A stretch of 64,000 nt of DNA from Minisyncoccota bacterium. GTDB lineage: Bacteria > Patescibacteriota > Minisyncoccia > Phycocordibacterales > JAQTLZ01. The stretch's first letter is position 1, and every line of letters starts with the position of its first letter. Under the pieces are notes generated by a model. That model was not told the DNA's origin. It saw nothing but the letters and a program-made list of their open reading frames with translations, and searched no databases. Position numbers and translations under genes: made by a program. The DNA lies in the NCBI GenBank assembly GCA_028714635.1, contig JAQTLZ010000002.1, positions 9,362 through 73,361 of the forward strand, given 5' to 3'. Of this stretch, positions 1,397 through 46,148 are shown in pieces.

Positions 1397-1715
1397 CTTA
1401 CCATTTGTAGCCAGATTTTAGCTGCCTTGCATTGAAAAAGCCCTGTAATATAATGGGAAAGTACATTACAGGAAGGAGAAACAACACTTTTCTCCGAGAA
1501 AAATAAATAAGGTCGATTTAGCAGATTTAACATAATAGAATTTAGGAATTTGGATGAAATTCGAGACGCGAGTGAGTGAGAAGCGATGGGTATCGCTTCG
1601 CAAGACCTTGAGCGTTTTGTAATCAAAATGCGAAAGGTGTACAGCTCCTGTAAGGAGTTGCGACAAGACAAGACTTTCGACGAAGAAGTTCGCCAAATTC
1701 GTAAATTATAAACAT

Positions 1716-4348: not shown

Positions 4349-5086
4349 TTATTTCGGTATGAAAGCCTTCGCGCTTCGCCACGCCATTTCAAACATTGTC
4401 TTCATAGTGGTCGCGATGGTCACGTCTTCGATGCGGACAACGAACAAATTAAACTCCTGAAGCCGGAAAAAGCAGACGACGTTGTCATAAATAACACTGT
4501 CGTTGAATACCGGACCACTCGCCAAACGCGCGCTGTAATTTTCTCCGGCTGTCACTGCCCATCTTTTCGCACTCGCTCTTGCGTCCGGTGTGTCGGCGAG
4601 AATTTCTCTAGTAAAAATTTTATTATCTATCGTCGCTTGATTTATTTTTCGGTACGCATCGGGAAATATTTTTTCAACTGAAGAAAGATCGGACCAAAAA
4701 ATAAGTTCCCGAGTTTTTTTCATCTCTTCATAAATATGAAAAAGTCCTTTCTCTCCTTCAAAGACTTGCACGCCCGGTCTTCCCTGTTCCGATTGTTGTA
4801 AAATTTCAAGCTCATGAATTTGTTTTTTAAACGAGCTGACATTTTCTTCAAGTTTGTTCTCGACCGCTTTCGGCGAGAGCGCCTGATAATATTCTTTTTT
4901 GCCGATTGTGATTTTATGAATGAATCCGCTTTTTAGCATCTCTTCCAGGTACACGTACACAGTCGGACGTTTCAGTTCGCATTTAGTGGAGATATTTTTC
5001 ACTGATGACGTGCCCAAAGCCAAAGTAGCCATATAGACTTTGGCCTGTTTTTCATTGAGTCCAAGGGTTTGAAGTGCTTGTATCAT
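4349..5086 (-). CDS. TrmB family transcriptional regulator
   Basis: N-terminus LGLNEKQAKVYMATLALGTSSVKNIS...RPTVYVYLEEM, typical of a TrmB wHTH. Confidence 0.7.
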   Translation of the reverse strand: MIQALQTLGLNEKQAKVYMATLALGTSSVKNISTKCELKRPTVYVYLEEMLKSGFIHKITIGKKEYYQALSPKAVENKLEENVSSFKKQIHELEILQQSEQGRPGVQVFEGEKGLFHIYEEMKKTRELIFWSDLSSVEKIFPDAYRKINQATIDNKIFTREILADTPDARASAKRWAVTAGENYSARLASGPVFNDSVIYDNVVCFFRLQEFNLFVVRIEDVTIATTMKTMFEMAWRSAKAFIPK

Positions 5087-5598
5087 CCCCTAATCCTATC
5101 CTGTTTGATTATAAATGTCAATAAATCTGACATATTTTATCCTACATTTCTATATTTATAGGCCTATTTTAGTTATCTTTAACTCATTTCTTCTGCTCTT
5201 TTTGACATATCTAGGATTCGTTGTAAAGTTATTGCAGTAGTACATTGACACACGGACTGTTCCGTGGTCTGAAGAAAAATGACATTTTGGCCTAAGGGCC
5301 GGAAGGATTGGTGACATCGTGTCAAACGAAGAGAAACTGCGGCTGGAAAATCTGGAGAAAAGAATTAAGGGAATGTTCAGCATACTTCCTCTCCATGATC
5401 AGAAAATCATCGAGTCAAAATACGGTCCCATAAAGGATTGGACGCTCGATACCATCCGGAACATAGAGACGACTGGGTTCAATCAAGTCTCTTATCCGTG
5501 TCAGTAGAAGTGGGGGGATTCTAAAAAAATCCCCCATCTTATCAAGTCCGCAAGCGCTTGTGGACTTGTAGGAAAAATTACTCATAAGCATATTAAAA

Positions 5599-6750
5599 AT
5601 GAATAAGAAAATAATTATAGGAATTGTTCTCGTCCTACTTGTCACTCTAGGAATTGGGATCGCAAAGTACAATGCCGGTAGTAGAAACACTGCCGCATTG
5701 GAACTCTCAGGGACTATAAAAGTCGGAGCAGCGCTTGGTCTCACCGGTGAATGTGCAAACTACGGTGAGGGAGAACTCAAAGCCGCGCGACTCGCCATAG
5801 ATGAGGCAAATAAAAGCGGTGGAATCTTGGGAAGAAAACTCGAGCTCATCACAGAGGATACGCAATGTAGTCCGAAAGGTTCAGTGAATGCGATAAGAAA
5901 ACTCATTGACATCAACAAAGCAGAAGCCATCGTCGGACTCACCTTTGGCGATAGCTTCCAAGCAGGATACACAATAAACAATCCTGCGCACATTGTTGCA
6001 GTTTCTCCCTCGACAGCTCTCGAAGCTCTCGCGTACAACAACGCTTCGACTGACTACGTCTTCTCAACTTGGTTTTCCGAAAGAGACGAGATCCAAGCGC
6101 TCCAGAAACGAGCAAAAGAGATGAACATAAAGAAATTTGTGCTCTTCCATGATGAGGATGCATTTGCAAGCATGCTTTCATCACTCTGGAATACGTATGC
6201 GAAAGAGAACGGCCTAACGATTGTGAAGGAATACAAAGTTCCTGTCGGCTACGATGATTACCGAACAATCATCCTGAAAATGAAAGCAGATAACCCCGAG
6301 GGAATAGCTTTCTTCGCACAAACTCAAGCTACGCGAGCGAAGTTCATGAAAGAAGCTAAAGAACTTGGCCTTAATGCGCAGATCTTCCAAAGTGCGGACA
6401 TTGAATACCCATCACTCCTTGAAAACTTCGGGAGTGCGATGGAAGGAATAATCTACACCTTTCCCGAAGTAACGGGAGAGAGTAAATCATTCTTCGACCG
6501 TTTCAAAGCTTTCTACGGAGAGGATTCGGTTGGAGGAAGCGATGCAAACGCCTACGACGCCACTCGAGTAATCATTGCCACACTTACAGAGCATTACAAA
6601 AATGGCACTGATATGAAAACCGCGGTGGAGAAAACAAACATACCGGGTACAGCATTCAAAGAAATAAAATTCGATGAAGCTCACCAAGTCACTGGTTCGA
6701 AATACATAATCAAGACGGTGCGGGATGGAAAGTTCGTGGAGGTGAAGTAA
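5599..6750 (+). CDS. Periplasmic binding protein type 1 (Leu/Ile/Val-binding-like substrate-binding protein) with N-terminal TM or signal. No adjacent permease or ATPase.
   Basis: ALGLTGECANYGEGELKAARLAIDEANKSGGILGRKLELITEDTQ resembles LivJ/LivK-family proteins. Confidence 0.75.
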   Translation: MNKKIIIGIVLVLLVTLGIGIAKYNAGSRNTAALELSGTIKVGAALGLTGECANYGEGELKAARLAIDEANKSGGILGRKLELITEDTQCSPKGSVNAIRKLIDINKAEAIVGLTFGDSFQAGYTINNPAHIVAVSPSTALEALAYNNASTDYVFSTWFSERDEIQALQKRAKEMNIKKFVLFHDEDAFASMLSSLWNTYAKENGLTIVKEYKVPVGYDDYRTIILKMKADNPEGIAFFAQTQATRAKFMKEAKELGLNAQIFQSADIEYPSLLENFGSAMEGIIYTFPEVTGESKSFFDRFKAFYGEDSVGGSDANAYDATRVIIATLTEHYKNGTDMKTAVEKTNIPGTAFKEIKFDEAHQVTGSKYIIKTVRDGKFVEVK

Positions 6751-6782
6751 GACAAAACAAAAACACTAGCTTAACGCTAGTG

Positions 6783-6960
6783 TTTTTGTTTTTGTGCGGG
6801 ACGGAGATCGGTCGTTACACGACCAGTACCCCGATTGGATTTTTTATGCGCGCTCACGCGCTTTTAAAAATGCTCAATCGGGCTTCGATTCTCCCGTCAT
6901 GAAGCGCCCCGCGCTTCACTTCCCCACAAAATGAAAAAAGACCTTTCGGCCTTTTTTCAT
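6783..6960. repeat. tRNA-Gly-associated composite. It contains a direct duplicate of the tRNA-Gly 3' end (6795-6810), a conserved hairpin motif CGGTCGTTACACGACCAGTACCCCGATTGGATTTTT (6809-6845), an inverted T-arm-like fragment (6871-6895), a CCCC-loop hairpin (6901-6917) and the tRNA terminator (6934-6957).
   Basis: Sequence identity to the tRNA-Gly 3' end, and to motif copies at 13975-14013 and 14155-14176. Confidence 0.5.
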
Positions 6961-6964
6961 TTTG

Positions 6965-7035
6965 TGCGGGACGGGAGAATCGAACTCCCGCCAAGAGTTT
7001 GGAAAACTCCTATTCTACCATTAAACTAGTCCCGC
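6965..7035 (-). tRNA. tRNA-Gly (anticodon UCC), no encoded CCA
   Basis: Cloverleaf folds by hand: acceptor GCGGGAC/GTCCCGC, anticodon loop TTTCCAA, T-arm GGGAG-TTCGATT-CTCCC. Confidence 0.85.
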
Positions 7036-7125
7036 AATATTTTCTTTTCAAACGAAACAAGATGAATATATCACAAAAATCGAGAAAGACAAAAGTAAGA
7101 GAAAAATGCTATTGTACTGAAAAAT

Positions 7126-11091: not shown

Positions 11092-11120
11092 TTGACACAA
11101 ATAATTTTAGGGTGTAAACT
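11092..11120 (+). promoter_or_regulatory. Sigma70-like promoter: TTGACA, 17-nt spacer, TAAACT. Upstream element CATATTGTCAATATTTGT (11000-11017) is shared with the 13186 locus.
   Basis: Hexamers and spacing read from the sequence. Confidence 0.5.
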
Positions 11121-11127
11121 TCCCAAC

Positions 11128-11916
11128 ATGCAAGACAAACACACGGAACTCAAAATCAAAATGCAATCCTTCGGCTTCAGTGAGAAAGAAACTGATGTGT
11201 ATGTTGCGCTTCTTGAACTCGGCAAAGCGACTGTCTCTAAAATTTCTCTCGGAGCAGGAATAAACCGCACAACTGGGTACGACATCCTTGCCTCCCTTGT
11301 GAGTAAGAAGCTCGTGAGTGTTTCCGGCAAGGAACCGAAACAGGAATATGCAGCCGAACCGCCAACAGCTATCACTGAATATTTGAAGCGGCGAATTTCA
11401 GAGACAGAAGGATATATAAAACAAGCAGAAAAAATTCTGCCGGAACTCACTCTCCTTCATACAATAGAAAATCGTCCGAAGATAAGATTTTACGAAGGCA
11501 CCGAAGGACTTCAGTATGTATACGAAGATACTCTCACGAGCTCCGAGACAATTCGCGGATATGCGGCAGTAGATGAGATGCATAAAGCTCTTCCGAATTA
11601 TTTTCCCGAGTATTACAAACGCCGGGCGGCCAAAGGAATTTCTATCAGAGCCATTCTTCCGAAAAGTGCGATCAGTCTTGAAAGAGGGACTCACGACGTA
11701 GAAGAAAAAAGAGACACCGCTTTCATTCCTGCTGATAAATACCAATTTGCTCCCGAGATAGATATATATGACAACAAAGTAATGATCGCTTCATGGAGAG
11801 AAAAGCTCGGCATCATCATTGAAAGCGAAGAGATCGCAGACGCAATGAAGAAGATATATGAACTCGCTTGGGCAGAGGCGAAAAGGTTGGATAAGGAAAC
11901 AACAAAAATAAATTAA
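11128..11916 (+). CDS. TrmB family transcriptional regulator (alternative start at 11161)
   Basis: FGFSEKETDVYVALLELGKATVSKIS...RTTGYDILASLVSKKLV wHTH region. Confidence 0.75.
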   Translation: MQDKHTELKIKMQSFGFSEKETDVYVALLELGKATVSKISLGAGINRTTGYDILASLVSKKLVSVSGKEPKQEYAAEPPTAITEYLKRRISETEGYIKQAEKILPELTLLHTIENRPKIRFYEGTEGLQYVYEDTLTSSETIRGYAAVDEMHKALPNYFPEYYKRRAAKGISIRAILPKSAISLERGTHDVEEKRDTAFIPADKYQFAPEIDIYDNKVMIASWREKLGIIIESEEIADAMKKIYELAWAEAKRLDKETTKIN

Positions 11917-13185: not shown

Positions 13186-13959
13186 ATGGCAGTAAACGAA
13201 ACATTAAAAAAATTAGGACTCAATGACAAAGAGATAAAGATTTATCTCACCCTTCTTAAGCATGGGAAAACAAAACCATCCTCACTTTCGAGTTTGACGA
13301 AAATAAATCGTGCAACGGTCTACAACTTGGTAAACGGCTTGCTTTCAAAGGGGCTCATCGCCGAAGATCTCACGGGCAAAACCCTCTACCTCACTCCCCT
13401 CCCCCCGAAAAATCTGGAAAAAATTCTCGATCAGCAAAAAAGAGAACTGAAAGAAAGAGAAGCTCTCATCAAAAAAGCTATCGGCGAGTTGAGCATGATA
13501 ACACCAGCCAGCAATTATCCTGTTCCGAAAATTCAATTCGTGGAAGAAGGCAATCTTGAGAAATTTCTCTACGACAACATTCTCAAATGGCAGAAAAGCA
13601 TGTTCGAACATGATGCCACGTGGTGGGGCTTCCAAGATCATTCCCTTCTCTCAAACTATGAAGAGTATATTCATTTCACTTGGCAGACTTCCTATGGAAA
13701 ACATAAAGATTTCAAAGTAAAACTCTTGGGTAATTCCGCAAAAATTGAAGATAAAGTAGCGAGTAAATACTTAAAATCAAGACGTGATATTCGTTTTGTT
13801 GAAGGAATGAATTTCACATCCACTGTCTGGGTAATGGGAGATTATATAGCAATGGTAGCAACTGGCGCTCATCCATTCTATCTATTCGAGATTCACGACC
13901 AGACACTTGCTCATAATATGAGGGAGGTATTCAAAAAGCTTTGGGAAAAAACTCAATAA
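13186..13959 (+). CDS. TrmB family transcriptional regulator
   Basis: LGLNDKEIKIYLTLLKHGKTKPSSLS...RATVYNLVNGLLSKGLI. Confidence 0.75.
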   Translation: MAVNETLKKLGLNDKEIKIYLTLLKHGKTKPSSLSSLTKINRATVYNLVNGLLSKGLIAEDLTGKTLYLTPLPPKNLEKILDQQKRELKEREALIKKAIGELSMITPASNYPVPKIQFVEEGNLEKFLYDNILKWQKSMFEHDATWWGFQDHSLLSNYEEYIHFTWQTSYGKHKDFKVKLLGNSAKIEDKVASKYLKSRRDIRFVEGMNFTSTVWVMGDYIAMVATGAHPFYLFEIHDQTLAHNMREVFKKLWEKTQ

Positions 13960-13974
13960 TTATAGAGAATTTCG

Positions 13975-14278
13975 GTCGTTACACGACCAGTATCCTCGTT
14001 GGAGATTTTGTCTCGCTTTGCTCACAAAATCTACTCAACGAGGCTTCGAATCTCTGACGAAAGTGCTCCCCAGCACTTTCTCACCCAGCCACGTAAAAAA
14101 CCGCTCTCGCGGTTTTTTCTTGTCGGGGTGCAGAAAGTTTCGAAGCTTACAGCTTCAGTACCCCGATTGGATTTTTCTTCGAAAAATGCTCAGTCGGGTT
14201 TCGAATCTCTGACGAAAGTGCTCCCCAGCACTTTCTCACCCAGAGCAAGTAAAAAGCCGCATAAGCGGCTTTTTCTTG
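13975..14278. repeat. About 153-bp imperfect tandem units upstream of tRNA-Pro. Each unit carries the conserved hairpin motif or its GTACCCCGATTGGATTTTT half, a GTGCTCCCCAGCAC hairpin, a terminator hairpin and a duplicate of the tRNA-Pro 3' end (14115-14135).
   Basis: Direct repeats 14046-14090 versus 14199-14243 and 14115-14135 versus 14268-14290. Motif shared with 6809-6845. Confidence 0.5.
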
Positions 14279-14349
14279 TCGGGGTGCAGAGATTCGAACT
14301 CTGACTACATGATCCCAAATCATGGATGCTACCGTTACACCACACCCCG
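14279..14349 (-). tRNA. tRNA-Pro (anticodon UGG), no encoded CCA
   Basis: Acceptor CGGGGTG/CACCCCG, anticodon stem CATGA/TCATG with loop TTTGGGA, T-arm CAGAG-TTCGAAT-CTCTG. Confidence 0.85.
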
Positions 14350-15304: not shown

Positions 15305-15584
15305 ATATGTTACTTAAGAAACATTTTATGCTTATCGGACTGAAATTTTGTGTCTTTTTGCAATTTAACCATATTTATAGGCTTATTTTAGATAAAAGAC
15401 CGAAATTTTTCTGTTTTTTAAGGCTGTCTTTTATGCACACAATCCACAGACTTATCCACAGTTACACGTGAAATACCTATATTTTGAGCCATTTTGGTAT
15501 TTTAGGAATTCTGGGAAAAGGACAACTGGGTTCAGGGACAAAAAGTCGTTAGAGCCGTACTGATACAAAAATTATTACAAGCTG

Positions 15585-15655
15585 TGCGGGTAGCGAGAAT
15601 CGAACTCGCGCCTTAACATTGGCAATGTTACGTCCTACCACTAAACTATACCCGC
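15585..15655 (-). tRNA. tRNA-Gly (anticodon GCC), no encoded CCA
   Basis: Near-identical in layout to bacterial tRNA-Gly(GCC). Anticodon loop TTGCCAA, T-arm GCGAG-TTCGATT-CTCGC. Confidence 0.85.
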
Positions 15656-16330: not shown

Positions 16331-16401
16331 TTAAAGTATATCACGGGAGTTCGATTTCTTGGTGTGGATAATTTATCAAATTTACCGTATGATGAGACGA
16401 C

Positions 16402-16473
16402 GCGCCCATAGTGAAATGGATATCACACCGGTCTTCGGAACCGTTATTGGGGGTTCGAATCCCTCTGGGCGCA
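16402..16473 (+). tRNA. tRNA-Arg (anticodon UCG), no encoded CCA
   Basis: Acceptor GCGCCCA/TGGGCGC, D-stem GTGA/TCAC, anticodon loop CTTCGGA, T-arm GGGGG-TTCGAAT-CCCTC. Isotype call is moderately certain. Confidence 0.75.
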
Positions 16474-16484
16474 CAAAAAGGCGT

Positions 16485-18011
16485 ATGAAACTCCTTCACA
16501 ACCAACATTTTGAGATCCCAAAAGAGATCATGAATGTACTAGAGACGCTCGAAAAGAGCGGTTTTGAGGCATATATCGTTGGTGGATGTGTACGTGGGCT
16601 TCTTACTGGCTTTAAACCTCGCGATTGGGACGTCACCACAAACGCTACTCCGGAAGAAATCATAAAGCTATTTCCAAAAACATTTTACGAAAATACGTAC
16701 GGCACCGTCGGCGTAGTGAATGAAGATGTCTCTACTCGAACAGAAGAGGGGATTCCTGATGAGACGTTGCGTGTGGTAGAAGTCACACCGTACCGCCTCG
16801 AGTCAACTTATTCTGACAACAGACGACCTGATGCTGTTACGTTCAGCAAAAATATTGAAGATGATTTAAAGCGAAGAGATTTCACCATAAACGCGATCGC
16901 GCTTTCTGTAAAAAAAGTTGGAACGAAACTTGAAGAAAAAATTATTGACCCGCACGGAGGAATTGCGGATATCGAAAAGAAAATATTGCGAACGGTAGGG
17001 AAGAGCGAAGATAGATTTGGAGAAGATGCGCTCCGCATTCTTCGGGCTATTCGCATTTCCACAGAGACAGATTTTGCGATCGAAAAAGAAACTGAAATGG
17101 GAATTCGAAAATACGCTCCGCTTCTCGCGAAAATTTCTAAAGAAAGGATCCGTGATGAGTTCGTAAAAATACTGATGTCCAAAGAGCCGATGAAGGGCAT
17201 AATTATGGCTCAAAATATGGGTATTTTGAAATATATCGTTCCAGAGCTTGAGGTGGGAATCGGAGTTGCACAAAACCAAGCCCACGCATTTGATGTCTGG
17301 ACGCATCTTCTCAAATCACTCCAACACGCAGCAGATAAAAATTGGTCTCTTGAAATTCGTCTTTCTGCACTCCTTCATGACATTGGAAAACCGGAAAGCA
17401 AACGCCAGCCGGCAGATAAAAAAGATCCGACATTCTACGGCCACGAAGTGATCGGTGCTCGCATGACAAAAAAGATCCTTGAAAATCTTAAGTTCTCAAA
17501 TAAAATAATTGAGAAGGTGACACTTCTTGTACGATGGCATATGTTTTTCTCCGACACGGAACAGATAACACTTTCTGCTGTGCGAAGAATGGTTGCCAAT
17601 GTTGGCAAAGAAAATATTTGGGATCTTATGAATGTTCGCGCTTGCGACAGGATTGGAACAGGAAGACCGAAAGAAAGTCCATACCGGCTTCGAAAATATA
17701 AATCAATGATCGAGGAAGCGATGCGAGATCCGATCTCTGTCACGATGCTCAAGATTGATGGAAATAAAATTATTGAAGTGACGAAAACACCTGCAGGGCC
17801 AAAAGTAGGCTTTATTCTCCATGCTTTGCTTGAAGAAGTACTTGATGATCCTAAGCTCAATACAGAGGAATATCTGGAGGAAAAGGCTCAAAAACTCATT
17901 ACTTTGTCAGAGGAGGAATTGAAAAAACTCGGGAAACTCGGCGTTGCAAAAAAAGAAGCTCTCGAAGAGAAGGAGAAGGAAGAAATACGCAAAAAGCATT
18001 GGGTGAAATAG
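16485..18011 (+). CDS. cca: CCA-adding tRNA nucleotidyltransferase with HD domain. The ORF-track start at 16359 runs through tRNA-Arg; the true start is taken as ATG 16485.
   Basis: Pol-beta NTase motifs GGCVRGLL..RDWD and the head/neck domain; HD motif LHDIGKP. Confidence 0.85.
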   Translation: MKLLHNQHFEIPKEIMNVLETLEKSGFEAYIVGGCVRGLLTGFKPRDWDVTTNATPEEIIKLFPKTFYENTYGTVGVVNEDVSTRTEEGIPDETLRVVEVTPYRLESTYSDNRRPDAVTFSKNIEDDLKRRDFTINAIALSVKKVGTKLEEKIIDPHGGIADIEKKILRTVGKSEDRFGEDALRILRAIRISTETDFAIEKETEMGIRKYAPLLAKISKERIRDEFVKILMSKEPMKGIIMAQNMGILKYIVPELEVGIGVAQNQAHAFDVWTHLLKSLQHAADKNWSLEIRLSALLHDIGKPESKRQPADKKDPTFYGHEVIGARMTKKILENLKFSNKIIEKVTLLVRWHMFFSDTEQITLSAVRRMVANVGKENIWDLMNVRACDRIGTGRPKESPYRLRKYKSMIEEAMRDPISVTMLKIDGNKIIEVTKTPAGPKVGFILHALLEEVLDDPKLNTEEYLEEKAQKLITLSEEELKKLGKLGVAKKEALEEKEKEEIRKKHWVK

Positions 18012-18341
18012 GGAAAAGGAAGAAAAATTGGCAATCGAAAACCGCCTTCACGATAATAAATGTTGTAAAGACGGTTTCGTGAAAAGTGTATTTCTATTCG
18101 TTAAATGAGAATACCCGCATTGAAGTTAAGCCAAAATATATTGGCTAATTTGGGGTCTTTCTTTGATTTTGAATTTGAAAACGCTTTTCAAAAGGCATTA
18201 GAGAGAGTAAATGCCTGTTTCAAGGAACTGGATCAAAATGTAAGGCCTCGGCAATACAAACTGATTCCGTGTAGAATTATAGCCAATCCTAAAAGACACG
18301 TAAAGGACATTTTAGAGATAAGTGTGGATAAGTGTCCTTTA

Positions 18342-19231: not shown

Positions 19232-20185
19232 CTAGTTTCGTTTCTTATCATGAAACTGCTTGTGAATGTCGTGGAGATGTTTGTCTGTCATATGCGTATA
19301 GATCTGTGTCGTACTTATGTTTGAATGCCCAAGAAGCATCTGCACAGAGCGCAGATCAGCCCCATTTTGCAATAAGTCAGTGGCGAAGCTGTGGCGCAAG
19401 CTGTGCGGGGTGACTTTTTTCGAGACTCCGGCCTTGATCGCATAGTGTTTCACCAAACGCTCTACTGAACGCGAAGAAAGCTGCATTCCTTTATTTTTTC
19501 TATCGATTTTCCCGAATCCTCGCTCTTCTATTTGGGTGAAAAGGGAATCGTCCATATCTTTTCGCTTTTTCAAATACTTTTGAAGCATTTCTTTTGCAGT
19601 TTTTGAGAGAAATACTACTCGAACCTTCTCACCTTTCCCCCGGACAGAGAATTCGTCTCGGCTAATGTCCAAATCCCGAGGAAGTTTACAAAGTTCTGAT
19701 ACTCGAAGGCCGGTGGAGAAAAGCATCTCAAGAATGGCTCGGTCACGGAGCTGTTTGAGACTATCGCCCTCTGCCGCTTTAAGGACGCGAGAGAGTTCTT
19801 CAGAAGAAATGGTATCGATCGAGCGCTCTGGCACCTTTGCAAGCTCAATCCTGTCCGGCGAGAGGGAAGGAATGCCTCGGTAGACTAAATATTTGAGAAA
19901 TGAGCGAAGAGCGATGAGATAATAATTCTGGGTTTTCTTTTTGAGCGTATCGGAATCACCGCGAGTCGGTTTTGCACTCTGGCGATTGAGCCAAAGCCGG
20001 AATTCCCGGACAGCGGAATCCGTGATATCGGTTGGTTTTTTGAGTTTCGAATACTGAAGAAAGCGAGTTAAGTAGCGCTCATAGTTTTCAACGGTTTTTT
20101 TGCTTCGTCCCTTGTCAATTTCAACGTATTGGAGAAATTCCTTTTTGAGTTCATCTAAATTCGCCATTATTTTATTATACACCAC
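19232..20185 (-). CDS. Tyrosine site-specific recombinase (XerC/XerD family)
   Basis: HSLRHSFATDLLQNGADLRSVQMLLGHSNISTTQIYTH catalytic box. N-terminal SAM-like domain. Confidence 0.85.
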   Translation of the reverse strand: MVYNKIMANLDELKKEFLQYVEIDKGRSKKTVENYERYLTRFLQYSKLKKPTDITDSAVREFRLWLNRQSAKPTRGDSDTLKKKTQNYYLIALRSFLKYLVYRGIPSLSPDRIELAKVPERSIDTISSEELSRVLKAAEGDSLKQLRDRAILEMLFSTGLRVSELCKLPRDLDISRDEFSVRGKGEKVRVVFLSKTAKEMLQKYLKKRKDMDDSLFTQIEERGFGKIDRKNKGMQLSSRSVERLVKHYAIKAGVSKKVTPHSLRHSFATDLLQNGADLRSVQMLLGHSNISTTQIYTHMTDKHLHDIHKQFHDKKRN

Positions 20186-20723: not shown

Positions 20724-21503
20724 ATGGGCATAAAAACAGAAATAAGTGAGTTTTTAAGAGAGCTCGGTCTGCGAAAGGCTGAAATAGCAGTATATTTGGC
20801 TGCTCTGGAACTTGGTTCGGCTTCGGCAAGTACTATCGCCAAGGAAGCTGACCTCAATAGGATTACTGCCTATGAGGCATTGAAGCGACTTTCTCGCAAG
20901 GGTTTTATAAGAATCAGAGCTAAGAAGAGTGACGCTACAAAATATTTTGTGCCAGTCGAGTATTCAGAGCTCGTGGGCAAGCTTAAACTCAAACATGAAG
21001 AACTAGCCGAAACGATCAAACGAGCAGGACTTTTGAAAAAAGAATTCGAAGCAAACTTCACCAAAGTCGATGAAAAACCAGTCGTTCTCTACTATGAAGG
21101 AGTTGAGGGAGTAAAGGAAGTACTCAATGACACCCTCAAAGACAGGCCGAAGGAAATTATTTCTTTTGCTTCTGCTGAATCTTTAGACGAAAGTCTTGAT
21201 CAGAATTTTTTAGACAGCTACTGGCAAAAAAGAACAACTCTTGGTATTCCCACGCGTGGAATTATGCCAAACACCTCCAAAGCTACCGCTCTCTTCACAA
21301 AAGAGAAAAATCAGAGGGAAATGAGGAGAATAAAATTTATTTCTGACAAATCGTATGATTTCAAAAATGAACTCGATATTTATGGGGACAATATTTCCAT
21401 GATTTCGCTCGAAAAGGGCAAGGAACATGCTGTTATTATACGAAGCAGGAGTATGGCGGAAGGATTAAGAGCCGTATACGAGACCCTCTGGAATCTAACC
21501 TAA
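20724..21503 (+). CDS. TrmB family transcriptional regulator
   Basis: LGLRKAEIAVYLAALELGSASASTIAKEADLNRITAYEALKRLSRKGFI. Confidence 0.75.
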   Translation: MGIKTEISEFLRELGLRKAEIAVYLAALELGSASASTIAKEADLNRITAYEALKRLSRKGFIRIRAKKSDATKYFVPVEYSELVGKLKLKHEELAETIKRAGLLKKEFEANFTKVDEKPVVLYYEGVEGVKEVLNDTLKDRPKEIISFASAESLDESLDQNFLDSYWQKRTTLGIPTRGIMPNTSKATALFTKEKNQREMRRIKFISDKSYDFKNELDIYGDNISMISLEKGKEHAVIIRSRSMAEGLRAVYETLWNLT

Positions 21504-34402: not shown

Positions 34403-36790
34403 ATGAGAGACTCGATCAAAAAATTTCTTGCATTTACACTCTGTTTTGGGGCAATTTTCTTTGTGACGGGTTGTCTCGTTAAAGAGGTTTATGCTGATCC
34501 AGTCATAGCGATTCCTGCTAATTTTTCTTACGTTAATGTCCCTATGTGGGACAAAGGAAAACACACACTCCCGAACGGAGTAACCTATGAGGTATACAGT
34601 GGTTGTAATCATACAAGTGATGACCTCTACGGGATCTGCGGTGGTCATAACGTTATTCGAGACCTTTCAACAGGTAAATATTATGATGTTCCTAGACTTG
34701 GAACGGCCCCAGGAAGAGAAGTAGACACCCCAGAAGGTGCACCTTCAGCTCCAATTGTTGATACGAGCAACGATGCCCCAGCGCCACCACCTCCAGAGGA
34801 CAATGGTCCAGTAGACTGTTCCAGCGGTGAATGTGTCGTGTCTCCGACAAATACGAATTCGGGTTTTTCTAATACACCTCCTAATGCGGGTTTGGTGGAT
34901 AATGCGCAACAGCAAGCTCTAGAAGCCCAAATAGCTACTGCACAAGCAGAGCAAGATCTTACAGATGCGAGTAGCAAGTTAAATTACTTTCACGACCAAT
35001 ATCCTTACATTTTTGATGCCGACGGGGGCATCCAAGCAGCCGATGTCATTCAAGCAAATGAAGACATCGCCAATTACAATAGATACAATGGGACTAATAT
35101 ACCGCCCCTTTCTGCAGAATCATACGACTCGATCAGACAGCAAGATCAAGATTTTCTGAATGAATTCACTACTGCGCGCCAGAATTATGAAGCTGCATTA
35201 GATTACCAGGCAACAGCAGAACAAAACTTCAATAGCCTTGATGATTACGCGCAACCAGATTCAGCTTCGGGATCTTCCGGCTCTGGAATAACAGCTGCTG
35301 GAGGAGTAGCGGGACTTTTGACGGGATCGACAGGAACAGCAGATCCGATCGTCCAACCAATAGTCCAGCAGGGGAATGTGGAATCAGGTAAGCAAAAGGG
35401 AACAGCGGTGCCAGTCACCAACGACATTCTCGAAAAAGCTGCAGTTGGTACACACGCAAATACAACTGCTCAAGTCAAGAAAGATTTCACCCTCGACGGC
35501 ATCGCAAAAATGATCGCTGAAAGAATGGTGCATCAGATCGCTACGAGCATCGTGCAGTGGATAAATACAGGTTTCAAAGGCGCGCCCGCATTCGTGACCG
35601 ATCTCAAAGGATTTATGGAAAAAGTCGGAGATGATGTTACAGCGACCTTTATCACCAAAAGCGGGCTCCTCCAGACACCTTACGGGCCACTCATAGCCCA
35701 AGCTATCATCGGCGCGCGTACAGGAAATTTCAACCTTCAGCCAGTGTTTACAAGCGCTCTCGCGCAGGGACAAGGAGTAGTAAATCAATTTCTTGGAGGA
35801 GATTTTTATGCCGGAGGCTTGCAAGGATTCTATGACGTTTCTCAAAATTGCAATAATTACCAATGCGCAACACTGGCAGCGATAAACAGAAACAACGTAT
35901 TAGTGCAGGAAGAAGAGCACCGCAAAGAACTCGAGTATTTGGCTGGACAAGGTTTTAAGCCAAAAACAGTGTGCGATGGAAGCAAAGGTTCTCCGTGTGA
36001 CCACCAAAGCGTCGTCACTCCCGGAAGCATTCTCCGTGAAAACCTAAATCAAGCTCTTGGAAGCGATCTTATCACTCTTGAAAATGTCCACGACATCAAT
36101 GAGATTATCGGCGCTCTTATGGGCCAGCTCATAAATATGGTGACAACCAGTTCTGGAGGCTTGAGTGGAACAAGTGCGCCAACGAGAAGCAAGGTAAATA
36201 AAAACGGAACCATTTCTCAAGTTTCGTTCCTTGCTGATTTGAATAGCGGAGTAGATATCGTCACCCTCGCTCAAGCAAAAGGGCCCACTCTTGCCTTGAT
36301 TGATGAAAATCTCACAAAAGCAAAAAATCCAAACCGATTAACCCTCTTTACCGGGGCACTCGCTAAGGTGAATGAAGCGGAAAACCTCATTGGGCAGGTG
36401 AAAATCTGTTACGAAGACAAGCTCGATCCTTCATTCGATCCGCCGCTTTCAGACAGTGATAAAAATCTTGCGGGAGGAAGAATCGACTCAGCGGATACCG
36501 TTCTTTCAACTCTCATAGCACCGGTGAAAACTGCTCTCGCACATGAAATTTCGATAGTGAATACGAAAGCAAACGCTCTGCAAAAAATCCGAAACGCTCT
36601 CACAGCAGCGACTACCGTAGCAGACGCGAACACAATAATAAATACCTACAAATCCCAATATGTAAACACCGGAAATACGCTCGAGGAAGATATCCAGTCT
36701 CTGACAGGCCAAGTTGGCACAATCGAAGGTGATGCGCAGACGCAACTGGATGAGTGTGAGGCATTGGAGGGAGTCCAGAATAATCCTTAA
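34403..36790 (+). CDS. Large secreted protein (795 aa), signal peptide, Gly/Ser-rich linker, no recognisable catalytic motif
   Basis: Signal peptide MRDSIKKFLAFTLCFGAIFFVTG and a long ORF. Confidence 0.5.
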   Translation: MRDSIKKFLAFTLCFGAIFFVTGCLVKEVYADPVIAIPANFSYVNVPMWDKGKHTLPNGVTYEVYSGCNHTSDDLYGICGGHNVIRDLSTGKYYDVPRLGTAPGREVDTPEGAPSAPIVDTSNDAPAPPPPEDNGPVDCSSGECVVSPTNTNSGFSNTPPNAGLVDNAQQQALEAQIATAQAEQDLTDASSKLNYFHDQYPYIFDADGGIQAADVIQANEDIANYNRYNGTNIPPLSAESYDSIRQQDQDFLNEFTTARQNYEAALDYQATAEQNFNSLDDYAQPDSASGSSGSGITAAGGVAGLLTGSTGTADPIVQPIVQQGNVESGKQKGTAVPVTNDILEKAAVGTHANTTAQVKKDFTLDGIAKMIAERMVHQIATSIVQWINTGFKGAPAFVTDLKGFMEKVGDDVTATFITKSGLLQTPYGPLIAQAIIGARTGNFNLQPVFTSALAQGQGVVNQFLGGDFYAGGLQGFYDVSQNCNNYQCATLAAINRNNVLVQEEEHRKELEYLAGQGFKPKTVCDGSKGSPCDHQSVVTPGSILRENLNQALGSDLITLENVHDINEIIGALMGQLINMVTTSSGGLSGTSAPTRSKVNKNGTISQVSFLADLNSGVDIVTLAQAKGPTLALIDENLTKAKNPNRLTLFTGALAKVNEAENLIGQVKICYEDKLDPSFDPPLSDSDKNLAGGRIDSADTVLSTLIAPVKTALAHEISIVNTKANALQKIRNALTAATTVADANTIINTYKSQYVNTGNTLEEDIQSLTGQVGTIEGDAQTQLDECEALEGVQNNP

Positions 36791-36825
36791 CGTATAATAG
36801 AGAAGAATCGATTAAAATTTATCAA

Positions 36826-39800
36826 ATGTTCGATAGAAAAAAACAAATTCAAAAAGGAGAAGTGCTGGGACAGAAACAAAAAAATTTACTCCCGGCTTCT
36901 AAAGAGACGAGAAAAGTTTTCTCATTGATGACTATTCTATTAGTAATAGGAATAGGAATAATTTTCCCCTTAGGAGCAAGCGTCAAGGCAGACACAGTAC
37001 AAATAGGTGGGCATACGATAGAATTCAATTACAATTCAATCGGAGGTAGTTCCGCACCCTTCGATCCAAATGATCTTAATGGGCCTTATGTAGTAAACGG
37101 ACAAACGTATTTTGTCTACCAAGCTACTAAATACCGCATAACGGGCAATACAGCTGTACCAGTTGATACTGGAGACAGTACTTTTTCTCAGTCAGCCGCG
37201 CAACTTTTTGGAGCACAGATACCTTTTATAGGAAGCGGTACAGCCCAAACACTGACCCACACGGGTTGGATAAATGTTATTCAGGATGGTTTAAATGCAG
37301 AACTTGCAGCAACAAGGAAAAAATTAGCTGCCGACCAGGCAGCGGGCGATACGGTAGCCGTTAATGAAGACCAACAAAAAATAGCAGCCATAAATAGTGA
37401 CATAAAGGAAGCTGCGGGAACTGTAAACATGAACAGTGGCCAGGCCGCTCAAGCAACGGCAGATTCGAATCGGCTTATGGGTGATGTAAGCTGCACATGG
37501 AATAGTAAATTTAGTTTGGTTGCGTGTCTTAATATCGCAGCGCTCTGGGTGGGAAATCTGATCCTTAGCCTCGCCGCGCTCTTTCTCTTCATTGTAAGCA
37601 TTCTCTTTGACTACATAATCTCCGGTACAGTAGCCGGAATGGGAGGAATCATCCAGAGGGTAGGCACTATAGCAGTTGCTTGGAGAGCGGCTCGGGATAT
37701 CGCGAACGCATTTTTCATATTTATCCTTCTTTATCTCGCAATCGCTACAATTTTGGACCTTGGAGTAGAGACGAAAAAACAGGTGATACGAGTGATAGTG
37801 ATGGCGCTCCTTATCAATTTCAGTCTCTTCTTTACTAGTGTGATGATAGACGCCTCGAACCTCATCGCCACCGGTTTTTATAATGCCACACTCAAGATAG
37901 CGAAAGACACCGCTCCTCCGCCGAACGCAGGACTGACGTCAGGAATAATCGACCCAGGCTCGCGCACAGGAAGCATTTCATCTGTATTTTTAAATGCGAT
38001 GGCTCTTCAGGGAATTTATAATTACAATTCTCCGACTATTAAAAGCGGGTTAGTGGAAAGCGCCAACACAGCAGATCCGAGAAAAGAAAACGTAGGAATT
38101 CCAGACCGAATAAGCAATACCGCAGTCGCCGAAAGTAGTGGCAACAAGATTTCATTCAGCAGAATCCTCGTCACCACCATTTTCGGCACGATGGTAATGT
38201 TTACCACCGCTCTTGTATTGCTTGCTTCTATTTCACTCTTCGGAGCACGAGTGGCAACGCTTCTTGTTTGTATGGTTTTTTCTCCTATCGCATTTGCCCT
38301 TATGGCAGTTCCAGGAGATAAATACTCAGAAAAACTCTACTGGGGCAAACTGGTACCGCAACTGCTCTTTGCTCCCGTCTATATGCTATTCCTTTTTCTC
38401 ACCATACAAATTGTGAGGAGTCTCCCGCCAGGAAGTTTCTCTGCTTCAAACGATGCAAATCTCAGCAGTGAACTCGGCGCGATATTCGCAATCTTCTACA
38501 ATTATATAATCGTCAACACCCTCATTATGACCACTCTTGTCTCGGCAAATGAGATTGGAATCGAGGGAGCAAGTGCGGCAATGGAGTGGGTGCAAAAAGG
38601 GAAGGGCGCGCTCCAGAGCGTTGTGGGGAGAAATACAATCGGCTGGTGGGCACGAGGTCTTGATGAGAAATGGGCGAATACAAATGCTCCACGAGGATTT
38701 AACTGGCTTGTTGGAGGTCAAGGAATTGTCGGCTCCAAGATTCGAGGTTCGACTACCGGCTTTTTGAAAGATGCTAAATTCGGCGGAGAGAAAAGCGCTG
38801 AAGATGTTTACCACGAGGAACATGTTCTTAGGTCTGCTCAAGAGAGCAACAGAAAGAAAGACGCAGTGATCGCGGGATTAAGAAAGGGGGACAAAGACGC
38901 TGTGGAACAGGCTTGGGGCAAACTTTCCGGTTCAGAGAAGATAGAAATGCTTAAAACTAATAAGGGGCTCTTCAATCATCGCGATATGGAAATGATCGGT
39001 GAAGCAAGTACTGACCAAGATATAGAGTCAATTGATAAAAGCGACGATTTAACCCAGCAGGAAAAGGATGAATTGAAACACGGAAAATTCGACCGTCAAA
39101 TTGCTATTTCGAAATTATACAAAAATGAGCTGGATAAATACGAGGAAGCATTCTCGAACGGAGGCAGATATAACGTTGTGGACAAAAACGGAAAAGAGAC
39201 CGGAGAAGTCGTCGATTTCAGCGCGGTAAGAGGTGCGGCCAGAAATGAACTTTACGCCCAAAACATGTTAAGTATGAGAAAATGGGATAAGAAATTGGCG
39301 ACCGATATACAAAAGAGGAAGGGTCTCTCGATCAAACATATGCATCAAATCGCACCGGATCTCTTCACCGATAACAAAGACGGAAGAATTACTGAAAACA
39401 TCGACCATGGGCCGATTGAAGACGCGAGAAGGCTGGGATTCTTGAGTGTTGCAGCTGAAAGAAAATTGCGACTGGCAAAAGGAACCGCAGCTATGGACGC
39501 GACAGCTATGGCGTACGGAATTGATGTTTCGAAAAAAGACTGGAGAGAAAAAGGCATTGAAGAGAGAGGAAAACTCCTAGACGCTGTGGGCGAACACTAT
39601 GTCTATGGAGGTGAAGACGCGATGGGTGAATATTTGAGACTGCAGAGTGGTAGTTTAACCCAAGCAGAGAGAGACGAATACGCTAGGCTTCATCATGGGG
39701 ATCAAGATTATATGGCAGCCGGCGAGGAAAGATACAGGCGATGGATGAGCGGTAAAGGACCTCACGAATTCTGGCTGAACAGAGGCGCTGTCAGAAATAG

Positions 39801-40290: not shown

Positions 40291-40299
40291 GCAAATACT

Positions 40300-41046: not shown

Positions 41047-41058
41047 AAACGAACAACT

Positions 41059-41511: not shown

Positions 41512-41574
41512 TATTTAGCTGAAAAACAGATTTATCCGTTGTAACGAGTGACTTCGCCGTCTATAATGTAACCT

Positions 41575-42216: not shown

Positions 42217-42228
42217 TTTCAAAATAGT

Positions 42229-44052: not shown

Positions 44053-44081
44053 TCACTAAGTCCTATCTCACCCCACTCAAG

Positions 44082-46062: not shown

Positions 46063-46148
46063 AATGAATCCCGTTAGAAGCAACCCATATTTACAAATCA
46101 TGCCTAATCCAAACATTTACCAAATAATCGAAGCTAGCTTCTAACGGG

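Follow-up and report, generated by a model that had tools for sequence, protein, structure and literature searches.

Copies of an apparently new family of hairpin-forming DNA elements adjoin tRNA genes in Patescibacteria

Among described systems, tRNA-targeting islands and CIMEs insert at the 3′ part of a tRNA gene, leave the tRNA intact and are flanked by a direct repeat of the tRNA 3′ segment, with repeated insertion giving rise to tandem arrays and the displaced copy undergoing decay. The odd sequence beside tRNA-Gly(UCC) and tRNA-Pro(UGG) in the window (the whole stretch of 64,000 nucleotides analysed) shares these properties, in that direct repeats of the tRNA 3′ end flank the insert, the tRNA is intact and the displaced copy lies directly before the common flank. 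It differs in that the unit is only ~135 bp, has no gene, no integrase nearby, no tyrosine or serine recombinase in cis, no full-length parent found and no supplier element demonstrated, holds the att segment a further time in inverted form, interrupted by a hairpin, and carries one conserved core for at least 30 different tRNAs, within and across genomes. REP/BIME elements, REPINs (mobilised by RAYT) and the Correia, RPE and ERIC repeats are likewise short, non-coding, extragenic and hairpin-forming, are often found after convergent genes or terminators, are homogeneous within a genome and are maintained at the DNA level; they are, however, scattered at many unrelated sites, confined to one species or genus, and carry no copy of their target. 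The units occur instead at the tRNA 3′ end in a fixed orientation, with tRNA-specific arms, a low copy number per genome and a core conserved across classes, and neither a RAYT/IS200-type gene nor a match to the Y1-transposase family was seen among the window proteins scanned. The inverted palindrome doublet in high copy with a RAYT partner that defines REPs and REPINs contrasts with the few, tRNA-bound copies per locus found here.

Elements of the CTX-phage type (IMEX) and integron attC sites are imperfect palindromes: when one strand folds, it forms a duplex similar to the target in the chromosome, and the strand that is active could be distinguished by asymmetric bulges or side hairpins. 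Such a small unit encloses no recombinase, and the target is restored after insertion, leading to tandem arrays. The units are alike in these traits, though their target is a tRNA gene end rather than dif or attI and the whole hairpin sits intact beside it; no dif-like, R/L-box or attC box sequence was visible in the core on inspection, and the parallel is a working analogy only, in which a role for Xer or IntI would be hypothetical. tRNA-like processing signals (plant mitochondrial t-elements, mascRNA-type signals, the tRNA-like domain of tmRNA) share with the units an acceptor plus T-stem minihelix, and a unit bears the discriminator of the adjoining tRNA and has a single arm where the D/anticodon domain would leave; its stems, however, make no use of G:U, ~80 nt replace the T-loop, and ARAGORN and Rfam are silent. 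Classical MITEs differ as well, as the ends of the insert (the spacer start and the P2′ end) are not mutual inverted repeats, the inverted repeats of the unit being either internal (P3) or formed between insert and target (R with L or with the tRNA), and the duplication is ~20–24 nt and always the T-loop-to-discriminator segment of the tRNA, not a short target-site duplication at unrelated sites. The group I introns published for tRNA genes of Patescibacteria are anticodon-loop introns and unrelated to the element.

The sequence beside the two tRNAs consists of copies of a widespread family of hairpin-forming DNA elements, ~135 bases long, in the Patescibacteria (CPR bacteria). The family is apparently new to science; neither Rfam nor the collections of phages, plasmids and viruses gave a match, and the literature searched, also for the exact motif, contained nothing on it. 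Three full units lie in the window, a single one following tRNA-Gly(UCC) and a tandem pair following tRNA-Pro(UGG), together with one decayed orphan with no adjoining tRNA (Table 1); two of the four tRNAs of the window have no unit. The motif is exact at the Gly and Pro loci (TCGGTCGTTACACGACCAGTA at 6808 and 13972; CAGTACCCCGATTGGATTTTT at 6824 and 14156), and two such matches occurred in 0 of 100 shuffles. Every feature listed in a preliminary description of this DNA is present in the sequence, though the second copy of the tRNA 3′ end, placed there next to the tRNA terminator, stands at the opposite end of the unit, with ~170 nt between it and the tRNA, and the architecture recurring at tRNA-Pro comprises two tandem units rather than one.

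Table 1. Coordinates of the units, their parts and the adjoining tRNA genes in the window.
Feature	Position	Strand	Basis or detail
Gly unit	6793–6931		After tRNA-Gly(UCC)
Distal hairpin AAAACAAAAACACTAGC-GTTAA-GCTAGTGTTTTTGTTTT with A and T runs	6754–6792	.	17-bp perfect inverted repeat; terminator-like site
L arm, Gly unit, TGCGGGACGGAGATCG	6795–6810	+	Reverse complement of the tRNA-Gly(UCC) 3′ end; equal to + strand TGCGGGACGGGAGAATCG (6964–6981) save two 1-nt deletions
P2 hairpin GGTCG-TTACA-CGACC	6810–6824	+	Sequence; family covariation
CAGTA linker, invariant	6824–6828	+	Invariant alignment columns
P3 long hairpin	6829–6883	+	CCCGATTG (6830–6837) pairs with CAATCGGG (6875–6882)
R arm, Gly unit, TTCGATTCTCCCGTC	6884–6898	+	Perfect 15-nt inverted repeat of tRNA-Gly segment 6970–6984 (15/15 complementary)
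P4 hairpin TGAAGCGC-CCC-GCGCTTCA	6900–6918	+	Splits T-stem from acceptor part of R arm
Acceptor-3′-strand-like R-arm segment CTTCCCCACA	6919–6928	+	tRNA counterpart GTCCCGCACA
Spacer hairpin AAAAAAGACC-TTTC-GGCCTTTTTT, extra pairing AAAATG/CATTTT	6929–6963	.	22-nt inverted repeat 6922–6943/6948–6969
tRNA-Gly(UCC), CCA not encoded	6964–7035	-	ARAGORN; Rfam tRNA 66.8 bits
Pro unit A, divergent subfamily	13957–14090	+	Covariance model 84.3 bits, E 4e-22; outside training set
Pro unit A, P2	13974–13988	+	
Pro unit A, P3	13994–14001, 14036–14043	+	CCTCGTTG (13994–14001) pairs with CAACGAGG (14036–14043)
Pro unit A, R arm TTCGAATCTCTG	14045–14056	+	
Pro unit A, P4 GAAAGTGCT-CCCC-AGCACTTTC	14059–14080	+	Counterpart of Gly P4
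Pro unit A, TCACCCAG	14081–14088	+	
Hairpin AAAAAACCGC-TCTC-GCGGTTTTTT, interval between units A and B	14095–14118	.	Inverted repeat
Pro unit B	14123–14245	+	Covariance model 103.6 bits
Pro unit B, L arm TCGGGGTGCAGA	14123–14134	+	
Pro unit B, P2	14142–14156	+	Followed by CAGTA
Pro unit B, P3	14162–14198	+	
Pro unit B, R arm TTCGAATCTCTG	14200–14211	+	
Pro unit B, P4 GAAAGTGCT-CCCC-AGCACTTTC	14214–14235	+	Counterpart of Gly P4
Pro unit B, TCACCCAG	14236–14243	+	
Hairpin AAAAAGCCGC-ATAA-GCGGCTTTTT, terminator-like spacer of tRNA-Pro	14251–14274	.	Inverted repeat
tRNA-Pro(UGG)	14278–14349	-	ARAGORN; Rfam tRNA model
Decayed orphan unit CTCCTTACAGGAG ... GAAGCGAT-ACCC-ATCGCTTC	1564–1671	-	Covariance model 19.4 bits, E 0.002

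Units are ~120–190 bp in length, non-coding and positioned directly past a tRNA gene, and hold both a direct and an inverted copy of the last ~20 bases of that tRNA. Read antisense to the tRNA, a unit consists of the reverse complement of the tRNA 3′ end (L arm), a covarying hairpin with the loop TTACA (P2), the linker CAGTA (invariant columns in the family alignment) and a long hairpin with a variable tip (P3), followed by the inverted T-loop and T-stem, a further hairpin (P4), an acceptor-like strand and the spacer or terminator that leads to the tRNA. On the tRNA strand the order is tRNA, spacer hairpin (a terminator in many cases), R′, the conserved core (P3, linker and P2), L′ and the old downstream flank, where R′ repeats the T-loop-to-trailer part of the tRNA in inverted form, with P4 set exactly into the T-stem/acceptor junction, and L′ is a second, direct copy of the T-loop-to-discriminator segment. 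The T-loop, the T-stem 3′ strand and the acceptor 3′ strand are the only tRNA-derived segments within units. In the Gly unit, the L arm directly repeats, on the tRNA strand and in decayed form, the T-stem and acceptor 3′ strands, the R arm contains the T-loop, the T-stem 3′ strand and the first 3 nt of the acceptor strand of tRNA-Gly in inverted form, and P3 includes an internal loop (GA/TGCT), a T6/A5 stem and the variable tip ATGCGCGCTCACGCGCTTTT. Hairpins with A and T runs stand on either side of this unit and separate it from tRNA-Gly and from the convergent gene (5599–6750); the distal hairpin is both the end of that gene and the outer boundary of the unit, and the spacer provides tRNA-Gly with a terminator-like hairpin and lies in the middle of the palindrome formed by R arm and tRNA. 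The L arm of Pro unit A is mostly decayed and adjoins the stop codon of gene 13186–13959.

Across the family the arms follow the local tRNA, with alignment scores of 15.5 for the L arm (7.3 in permutations) and of 10.4 and 6.3 for the R arm (6.5 and 4.0 in permutations, respectively). The direct repeat spans the T-loop to the discriminator plus about 1–5 nt, ~20–24 nt in total. The inverted arm still matches the tRNA even where the distal arm has decayed, and arm decay does not respect pairing. A derivation of P4 from another part of the local tRNA was rejected (longest common substring 5.07 versus 4.93 in permutations), as was that of P2 from an anticodon arm (CUUACAG), of which variants retain just the central TAC and complementary flanks. 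A retroviral-type primer-binding site, in which the L arm would be complementary to the tRNA 3′ end, was also discarded, as copies stop at the discriminator or in the genomic trailer and no more than about 4 have CCA after L′. A self-cleaving ribozyme (hammerhead-like three-way junction) was dismissed on inspection, the CUGA of the Pro units being tRNA-derived and unconserved.

The same architecture was found at >200 places in Patescibacteria, both in Paceibacteria and in Saccharibacteria, at no fewer than 30 tRNA isoacceptors and always antisense; about 190 independent assemblies show it. The exact 18-mer CAGTACCCCGATTGGATT occurs in 116 metagenome stretches and 77 genome stretches, 72 of the latter being Patescibacteria with the same architecture, so the possibility that the motif is unique to the Gly and Pro loci, which the preliminary description had allowed for, can be set aside. 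A covariance model identified 104 copies in 73 stretches, adjoining 30 isoacceptors; the tRNA lies directly next to the copy on the opposite strand in 70 cases and on the same strand in none, 11 copies are in tandem, and those beyond the 70 are mostly tandem or at contig ends. Metagenome occurrences with a tRNA were similarly oriented (77 on the opposite strand, 0 on the same strand). Only about half of the nearby tRNAs carry a unit. Copies within a genome have a common P3 tip and differ in P4, and the tip tolerates lengths from 3 to >60 nt. The spacer is a good terminator at some loci only. At loci L041, L006 and L064, a unit sits between two tRNA genes of like orientation and no terminator intervenes, so that it must be co-transcribed there.

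Units are present or absent at syntenic tRNAs and have been amplified in tandem, with identical tandem units at loci L035, L059, L065 and L193. In the syntenic cluster Gly(tcc)-Pro-Gly(gcc)/Arg, different tRNAs are filled in the window and in loci L007, L039 and L069, and the empty sites consist of the tRNA followed directly by unrelated DNA. Two related genomes (L012 and L015; identity ~84%) differ in occupancy at three of four tRNAs. tRNA-Cys is filled in the former and empty in the latter, tRNA-Leu(taa) is empty and filled, respectively, with L′ of the filled site exactly ahead of the common flank TTGTCAGAAC, and tRNA-Lys carries different unit subfamilies. The first two-thirds of tRNA-Leu(taa) are nearly identical in the filled and empty alleles, whereas the T-arm and the acceptor 3′ strand differ as a whole, and the T-stem of tRNA-Lys differs by one compensated pair; these clustered differences could reflect ordinary divergence. 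Neither an excised form nor a strictly isogenic pair of empty and filled sites came to light in the compared loci, and loss and gain are indistinguishable because the clearest comparison involves genomes that are only ~84% identical. Homologues of the TrmB gene (13186–13959) were discarded as a guide to synteny, the nearest being about 60–64% identical and not syntenic with tRNA-Pro. Together, the 104 copies, the 70 opposite-strand tRNAs and the differing syntenic occupancy bear out the earlier suggestion of a small element family inserting beside tRNAs, and on balance the locus probably comprises copies of a non-coding, non-autonomous insertion element that acts at the DNA level and targets tRNA gene 3′ ends in Patescibacteria.

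The hairpins are kept as DNA palindromes rather than as RNA helices. In the family alignment P2 has 62 double-sided versus 1 single-sided change (138 versus 7 in a larger set), P3 has 69 versus 9, with all 8 pairs covarying in the wider family, and the A/T stem has 57 versus 4, giving 264 versus 20 for the three stems. Almost all stem changes are from one Watson-Crick pair to another, and among ~66 P4 hairpins of 8–9 bp only 8 mismatched pairs occur. A structured RNA, as had been offered in one of the first explanations, is not supported, and neither is a link to the Xer recombinase gene (19232–20185) invoked in another, a homologue of which lies within 8 kb of a unit at only 2 of 77 loci. A non-coding RNA tied to its tRNA, which we rate as decidedly unlikely, would, if made from the tRNA strand, act as a tRNA-like processing signal or divert RNase P, RNase Z or the CCA-adding enzyme as a decoy; made from the other strand, it would be antisense, with a 5′ arm complementary to the final ~24 nt of the tRNA but hidden by the 3′ arm. 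The topology of the tRNA strand is suited to the former, running from the acceptor 5′ strand, the P4′ arm and the T-stem 5′ strand through an expanded 'T-loop' (P3′ and P2′) to the T-stem and acceptor 3′ strands and the discriminator, with P4 at the site that mirrors the exit of the D/anticodon domain from the acceptor/T minihelix. Stem covariation, strong predicted folds on either strand (z −4.0 to −6.3), the very high conservation of the core across classes, unpaired linker and internal-loop bases included, and the necessary co-transcription at the three loci named above also speak for RNA. A wobble preference is, however, absent on both strands, in the core stems (G:T 23 versus A:C 23 in 1984 stem cells) and in the arms (34 versus 42), single-sided changes are about 13-fold rarer than double-sided, the arms decay regardless of pairing, the Gly unit is boxed in by hairpins that cut it off from both tRNA and convergent gene, and presence varies among related genomes, with about half of nearby tRNAs carrying a unit. 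Further, no promoter-like site was found inside units (a sigma-70 promoter in the conserved core was rejected for variable spacing and no scanner hits), Rfam 15 at the gathering threshold matched only the four tRNAs in the window, the best non-tRNA model at 6700–7100 with the E-value cutoff relaxed to 10 scored 25.6 bits against a gathering score of 98, and ARAGORN and the Rfam tRNA model called the four true tRNAs and no cloverleaf in units.

Units contain no genes and no ORF, and no recombinase, transposase or other gene travels with them or is enriched nearby; Pfam scans of neighbouring genes returned no integrase and a single IS3 transposase (locus L184). A search for cargo-bearing copies, with the 5′ and 3′ halves of the core far apart, yielded only chance gene matches, truncated copies and divergent subfamilies, and no autonomous parent was found in ~1.3 Mb of flanking DNA or in the phage, plasmid and IMG/VR collections, both core halves having 0 matches in 2.9 million viral contigs (IMG/VR), 50,697 phage records and 72,556 plasmid records. 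These results make it unlikely that the units are leftovers (att scars and attP-flanking DNA) of larger integrase-bearing elements at the tRNA 3′ end that have lost their interior, with the variable P3 tip as the former cargo site: none of the >200 copies of the one compact design has genes between the P3 strands, no integrase adjoins them, larger inserts sit between tRNA and unit and never inside the unit, and a constrained core with covarying stems and an invariant linker is not expected of dead scars. Such an origin would nevertheless account for the tRNA 3′ end being directly duplicated, as is classically seen where an integrase inserts DNA at tRNA genes, for the length tolerance of the tip, for the other DNA at the same tRNA ends beside orphan units (assorted cargo genes, one IS3 and a 0.9-kb ORF, with no integrase) and for the presence of a Xer-type recombinase in the window. 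The att-footprint proposal of the preliminary description thus holds for the duplication, as in tRNA integration, and fails for random scars, the unit being a self-contained, conserved design of ~135 nt. A host cis-acting DNA element under selection at tRNA genes, inherited vertically with concerted evolution of cores (for example a terminator/insulator cassette, or a cruciform shielding tRNA 3′ ends from integrating elements), is if anything slightly harder to credit than the RNA, as occupancy differs at three of four tRNAs at ~84% identity and among syntenic clusters generally, units multiply in tandem or persist as orphan or decayed copies, many tRNAs, including two of four in the window, have none, and the spacer terminates well at some loci only. 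For such an element speak the deep sequence conservation despite very small genomes, the terminator-like hairpin that comes with the unit right after the tRNA, the continued match between inverted arm and tRNA at units with a decayed distal arm, and the P3 tip shared within a genome, as expected from gene conversion. Against an insertion element counts the conservation of an exact 18-mer in both Saccharibacteria and Paceibacteria, which is unusual for selfish DNA and would be in keeping with a role in the host. That the units arose in assembly, from tRNA repeats that were collapsed or joined as chimeras, has a negligible probability and is already refuted: short-read contigs of the same organism tend to break within repeats, but the whole Gly unit is identical in an independent MAG (GCA_028711105.1), on one contig spanning gene, unit and tRNA, Pro unit A and the beginning of unit B are also present there, and the architecture recurs in all the assemblies counted above.

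As an insertion element, a unit would enter by recombination within the T-arm-to-3′-end segment of a tRNA gene, in a manner like the Campbell-type integration of tRNA-targeting islands. The incoming DNA would bring a fresh tRNA 3′ part together with spacer, R′ and core, and the resident 3′ end would be shifted distally, become L′ and decay; the 20–24-bp direct repeat would then permit precise loss and tandem duplication. Because R′ pairs with either direct copy, one strand can fold into a fully paired hairpin, which would mimic the duplex of the tRNA gene end, and folded single-stranded DNA is taken to be the active form. This form might be the substrate of a recombinase encoded elsewhere; alternatively, host recombination might act on it, or template switching, at the T-loop TTCGAA, which is palindromic and near-universal. 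No single donor, whether copied or excised, can give three tRNA-specific segments interleaved with conserved modules at 30 tRNAs. More speculatively, and with a low probability, the self-folding, enzyme-free mimic of a tRNA gene end may represent a new class of mobile DNA, recombinase-free or host-dependent and templated by its target. The two direct tRNA 3′ copies would then be homology anchors to a gene near-identical across species, with the inverted copy R sequestering the redundant direct copy, and the incoming or replicating single strand might form a fully paired hairpin loop that escapes repair, or else fold into an attP-like duplex on which a host recombinase acts. Switching at the T-loop TTCGAA would allow the arms to be re-templated on new tRNAs, and elements could spread among naturally DNA-importing CPR bacteria, rewriting tRNA 3′ ends on the way.

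The design, with three tRNA-specific segments, conserved hairpins, no enzyme gene and strict orientation, fits no standard scheme of transposition or integration, and its insertion route could reveal a new kind of site-specific insertion at a universal gene, a question open to experiment because some of the Saccharibacteria, in which the family is found too, can be cultivated. Since the T-arm and 3′ end of the tRNA appear to be exchanged along with the element, the element may be an unnoticed force in the evolution of tRNA genes and a means by which CPR lineages exchange DNA. The units define a conserved, easily recognised repeat family in a very large, poorly understood bacterial radiation, and account for breaks of short-read CPR assemblies at tRNA genes.

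Four tRNA genes were found in the window, and the preliminary description's sequence features after tRNA-Gly(UCC) and tRNA-Pro(UGG), including a repeated tRNA 3′ end, an inverted T-arm-like fragment and a shared hairpin motif, were all found in place. Two 21-mers are exact at both loci (two matches arose in 0 of 100 shuffles), and TTCGATTCTCCCGTC (6884–6898) repeats the T-loop, T-stem and beginning of the acceptor of tRNA-Gly in inverted orientation without a mismatch. One unit, a ~135-nt hairpin-forming DNA element, follows tRNA-Gly(UCC), while the tRNA-Pro locus consists of two tandem units, A and B (period ~156 nt; right halves 84–87% identical). Short-read contigs break off within the repeats; the same organism is also represented by an independent MAG (GCA_028711105.1, Candidatus Paceibacterota), which carries the whole Gly unit, identical, as well as Pro unit A and the start of unit B, so the repeats are real and an assembly artefact was excluded.

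Read on the plus strand, antisense to the tRNA, a unit opens with the L arm (reverse complement of the tRNA 3′ end), followed by the P2 hairpin (stem 5–6 bp, loop TTACA), an invariant CAGTA linker and P3, in which CCCGATTG pairs with CAATCGGG and leads to an internal loop that is conserved, a T6/A6 stem and a tip that varies. Between P3 and the R arm, which repeats the local tRNA's T-loop and T-stem 3′ strand in inverted orientation, is a single C; after the R arm come an AC-P4-T insert (P4 being a hairpin of 8–9 bp whose loop is often CCC(C)), a segment copying the acceptor 3′ strand and trailer, a spacer hairpin (in the window, a GC hairpin between A and T runs) and the tRNA gene. L pairs with R, and R also pairs across the spacer with the tRNA's own 3′ end; therefore a rod with several branches is the predicted fold of either strand (z-scores, -4.0 to -6.3). 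At many loci the tRNA-sense strand has GNA-type loops (TGTAA in P2′, the prime denoting that strand, and GCGAAGC in spacers and P3 tips), and loops of this type form very stable DNA mini-hairpins. These loops hint that the folded, active form is the tRNA-sense single strand.

The exact 18-mer CAGTACCCCGATTGGATT occurred in 77 stretches of species-representative genomes, 72 of them Patescibacteria with the same architecture (Paceibacteria, including Taylor-, Lloyd-, Kaiser- and Nomurabacteria, and Saccharibacteria) and five chance matches in genes of unrelated phyla; a metagenome scan returned 116 further stretches. A covariance model built from 54 copies recovered all three window units, including Pro unit A (84.3 bits), which was absent from the training set, and detected 104 copies over 73 stretches. 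A tRNA gene lay directly after 70/104 copies on the opposite strand and after 0/104 on the same strand (77 and 0 occurrences, respectively, in the metagenome set), with the remaining copies ahead of another unit in tandem (n = 11), cut by a contig end (n = 7) or orphaned (n = 16). Unit-bearing tRNAs covered 30 isoacceptors and made up 70 of the 138 tRNAs in the 73 stretches. Because the tRNA-Cys unit of one genome stretch, L012, belongs to a divergent subfamily, the family is wider than the 18-mer suggests.

The arms match the local tRNA. Against the reverse complement of the adjoining tRNA's last 24 nt, the L arm scored 15.5 (7.3 with tRNAs permuted). The R arm scored 10.4 vs 6.5 permuted over its T-loop and T-stem part and 6.3 vs 4.0 over its acceptor part. 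On the tRNA strand, the direct repeat extends from the T-loop, sometimes also taking in the two G's before it, to ~1–5 nt beyond the discriminator. In young copies R matches the tRNA perfectly in inverted orientation, the ~22-nt AC-P4-T module interrupting it exactly at the T-stem/acceptor junction (in L050, module in brackets, TTCGAATCCTG[CACGCATGTTCCCCGAACATGC]TACCGCGCAC). That P4 might copy the rest of the tRNA was rejected, no relation being found.

The earlier proposal of a family inserting next to tRNAs is supported by the placement of units at tRNA ends and by occupancy that differs at syntenic sites. The window, L039, L069 and L007 (a Saccharibacteria chromosome) share the syntenic cluster Gly(tcc) ... 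Pro(tgg) ... Gly(gcc)/Arg(tcg), with Gly(tcc) and Pro filled in the window and L007, and Gly(gcc) in L039 and L069; directly after the empty Pro and Gly(tcc) genes of L039 is unrelated DNA without the palindrome. Between L012 and L015, from related genomes (~84% identity), three of four adjacent tRNAs differ: tRNA-Cys is followed by a 136-nt divergent-subfamily unit in L012 and by the next tRNA within 5 nt in L015, tRNA-Leu(taa) has no unit in L012 but one in L015, with its L′ exactly before the common downstream flank, and the tRNA-Lys units are of different subfamilies. The filled Leu(taa) allele has six differences in the T-arm and acceptor 3′ strand, its first ~44 nt being identical, and the tRNA-Lys genes differ solely by one compensated T-stem pair, which suggests, short of proof at ~84% identity, that the tRNA 3′ part is exchanged along with the unit. 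Tandem identical units were present in L035, L059, L065 and L193. Within one genome, copies at different tRNAs have a common P3 tip and different P4, pointing either to a recent spread or to gene conversion confined to the conserved core.

All stems covary, nearly always from one Watson-Crick pair to another. In the alignment fitted to the covariance model, double-sided changes exceeded single-sided changes in P2 (138 vs 7), P3 (69 vs 9) and the A/T stem (57 vs 4); an independent MAFFT alignment gave 62 vs 1 for P2. For an RNA helix under selection, G:U is expected far above A:C on the transcribed strand, but neither strand had such an excess (G:T 23 and A:C 23 in 1984 core-stem cells; 34 and 42 in the arms), and P4 had only 8 mismatched pairs across ~66 hairpins. 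This pattern in the alignments is consistent with hairpins that are maintained or corrected as DNA, e.g. by intrastrand template switching. In agreement with a DNA-level reading, no promoter-like sites were found within units, the Gly unit is enclosed by hairpins with flanking A/T runs, and no Rfam family matched the unit even at an E-value cutoff of 10. The structured RNA suggested in the preliminary description is disfavoured on these grounds, and a tRNA-like or antisense RNA is unlikely.

On balance, the best-supported reading is that the units are probably a non-autonomous DNA-level insertion element specific to tRNA 3′ ends. Entry would occur by recombination within the T-arm-to-3′-end segment of the tRNA gene, the incoming DNA supplying a new tRNA 3′ part, spacer, R and core, and the resident 3′ end would turn into L′ and then decay. 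The 20–24-bp direct repeat would lead to precise loss and tandem growth, and the inverted arm would let the inserted strand mimic the tRNA gene end by folding into a fully paired form. Such a mimic resembles the folded single-stranded attP of CTX-type phages and integron attC sites in working principle only, as the defining features of neither were found. No ORF was found within units, no copy whose core halves are separated by genes, no match in phage, plasmid and viral collections and no account in the literature searched. The suggestion of att footprints correctly captured the direct repeat of the tRNA 3′ end, but no recombinase or transposase lies consistently nearby: Pfam scans of window genes and genes beside orphan units gave housekeeping functions or assorted cargo and one IS3, and the proposed link to the window's Xer gene is not supported, a homologue being <8 kb from a unit at only 2/77 loci. 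Remnants of larger integrated elements are thus an unlikely source. A host DNA element under selection is likewise unlikely. The core is kept to the exact 18-mer between classes while copies turn over.

Several orphans have other DNA between unit and tRNA, or a tRNA copy cut after 4–12 nt, which makes tRNA 3′ ends general insertion hot spots in these genomes. The L016 insert (0.9 kb, with a 251-aa ORF without assigned function) separates tRNA-Val from its unit and has a repeat of TGCGCC, the final bases of that tRNA, on either side. Orphans in L096, L104/L144, L149/L182, L158/L193, L174, L131 and L184 share the order unit, tRNA 3′ end shortened to 4–12 nt, a junction motif of ~GTTAGAACCTATTTT and varied cargo genes; this junction may mark where a larger family of tRNA-integrating islands ends.

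Positions of features in the window and in other stretches
Feature	Stretch	Position	Strand	Remarks
Decayed orphan unit	window	1564–1671	-	CTCCTTACAGGAG ... GAAGCGAT-ACCC-ATCGCTTC; no adjoining tRNA; covariance model 19.4 bits, E 0.002
tRNA-Gly(UCC)	window	6964–7035	-	ARAGORN, Rfam
tRNA-Pro(UGG)	window	14278–14349	-	ARAGORN, Rfam
tRNA-Gly(GCC)	window	15584–15655	-	ARAGORN, Rfam
tRNA-Arg(UCG)	window	16402–16474	+	ARAGORN, Rfam
TrmB-family regulators	window	4349–5086	-	
	window	11092–11916	+	
	window	13186–13959	+	runs directly into Pro unit A
	window	20724–21503	+	
DnaA boxes	window	15431–15460, 16363–16371, 18323–18331		perfect, TTATCCACA
CCA-adding enzyme	window	16485–18011		begins directly after tRNA-Arg
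Xer gene	window	19232–20185		
Possible transfer cluster	window	34403–47015		
TraG-like P-loop ATPase	window	42229–44052		
T4SS-pilin-like protein	window	46149–47015		
dnaA	window	50447–51793		
dnaN	window	52080–53180		
DnaA boxes of dnaA-dnaN	window	50312–52024		
Divergent unit, tRNA-Cys	L012	1932–2071		P3′ GGTTTTCG/CGAAAACC; P2′ GCGAC-GTG-GTCGC; P4′ ACTCGCGC-CTGC-GCGCGAGT
GNA-type loop	L039	5093–5120	tRNA-sense	also spacers of L010, L041, L050, L069
Insert before tRNA-Val	L016	5040–5900		
Second hairpin-rich repeat	L012	2160–2350		
	L015	6300–6495		
	L024	~5440–5600		

Upstream of tRNA genes there is also a second, distinct repeat rich in hairpins (... CCGTCG ... CGCCTCAC ... GGTTCCGGC ...), whose stem changes are compensated between the related genomes of L012 and L015. 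In the window, all four tRNA genes lack an encoded CCA, and the four TrmB-family HTH regulators, which are paralogous, lie within 17 kb. Perfect DnaA boxes flank tRNA-Gly(GCC) and tRNA-Arg, where cumulative GC skew reaches its deepest minimum (~16 kb), and in L039, too, tRNA-Gly(gcc) is followed by this DnaA-box region; dnaA and dnaN have their own boxes and a second, shallower dip (~52 kb), leaving two candidate sites for the replication origin. Two very large ORFs (795 and 1154 aa) without a Pfam match precede the TraG-like and pilin-like genes in a region of disturbed local GC skew, which may be a type IV secretion/DNA-transfer cluster or an integrated element.
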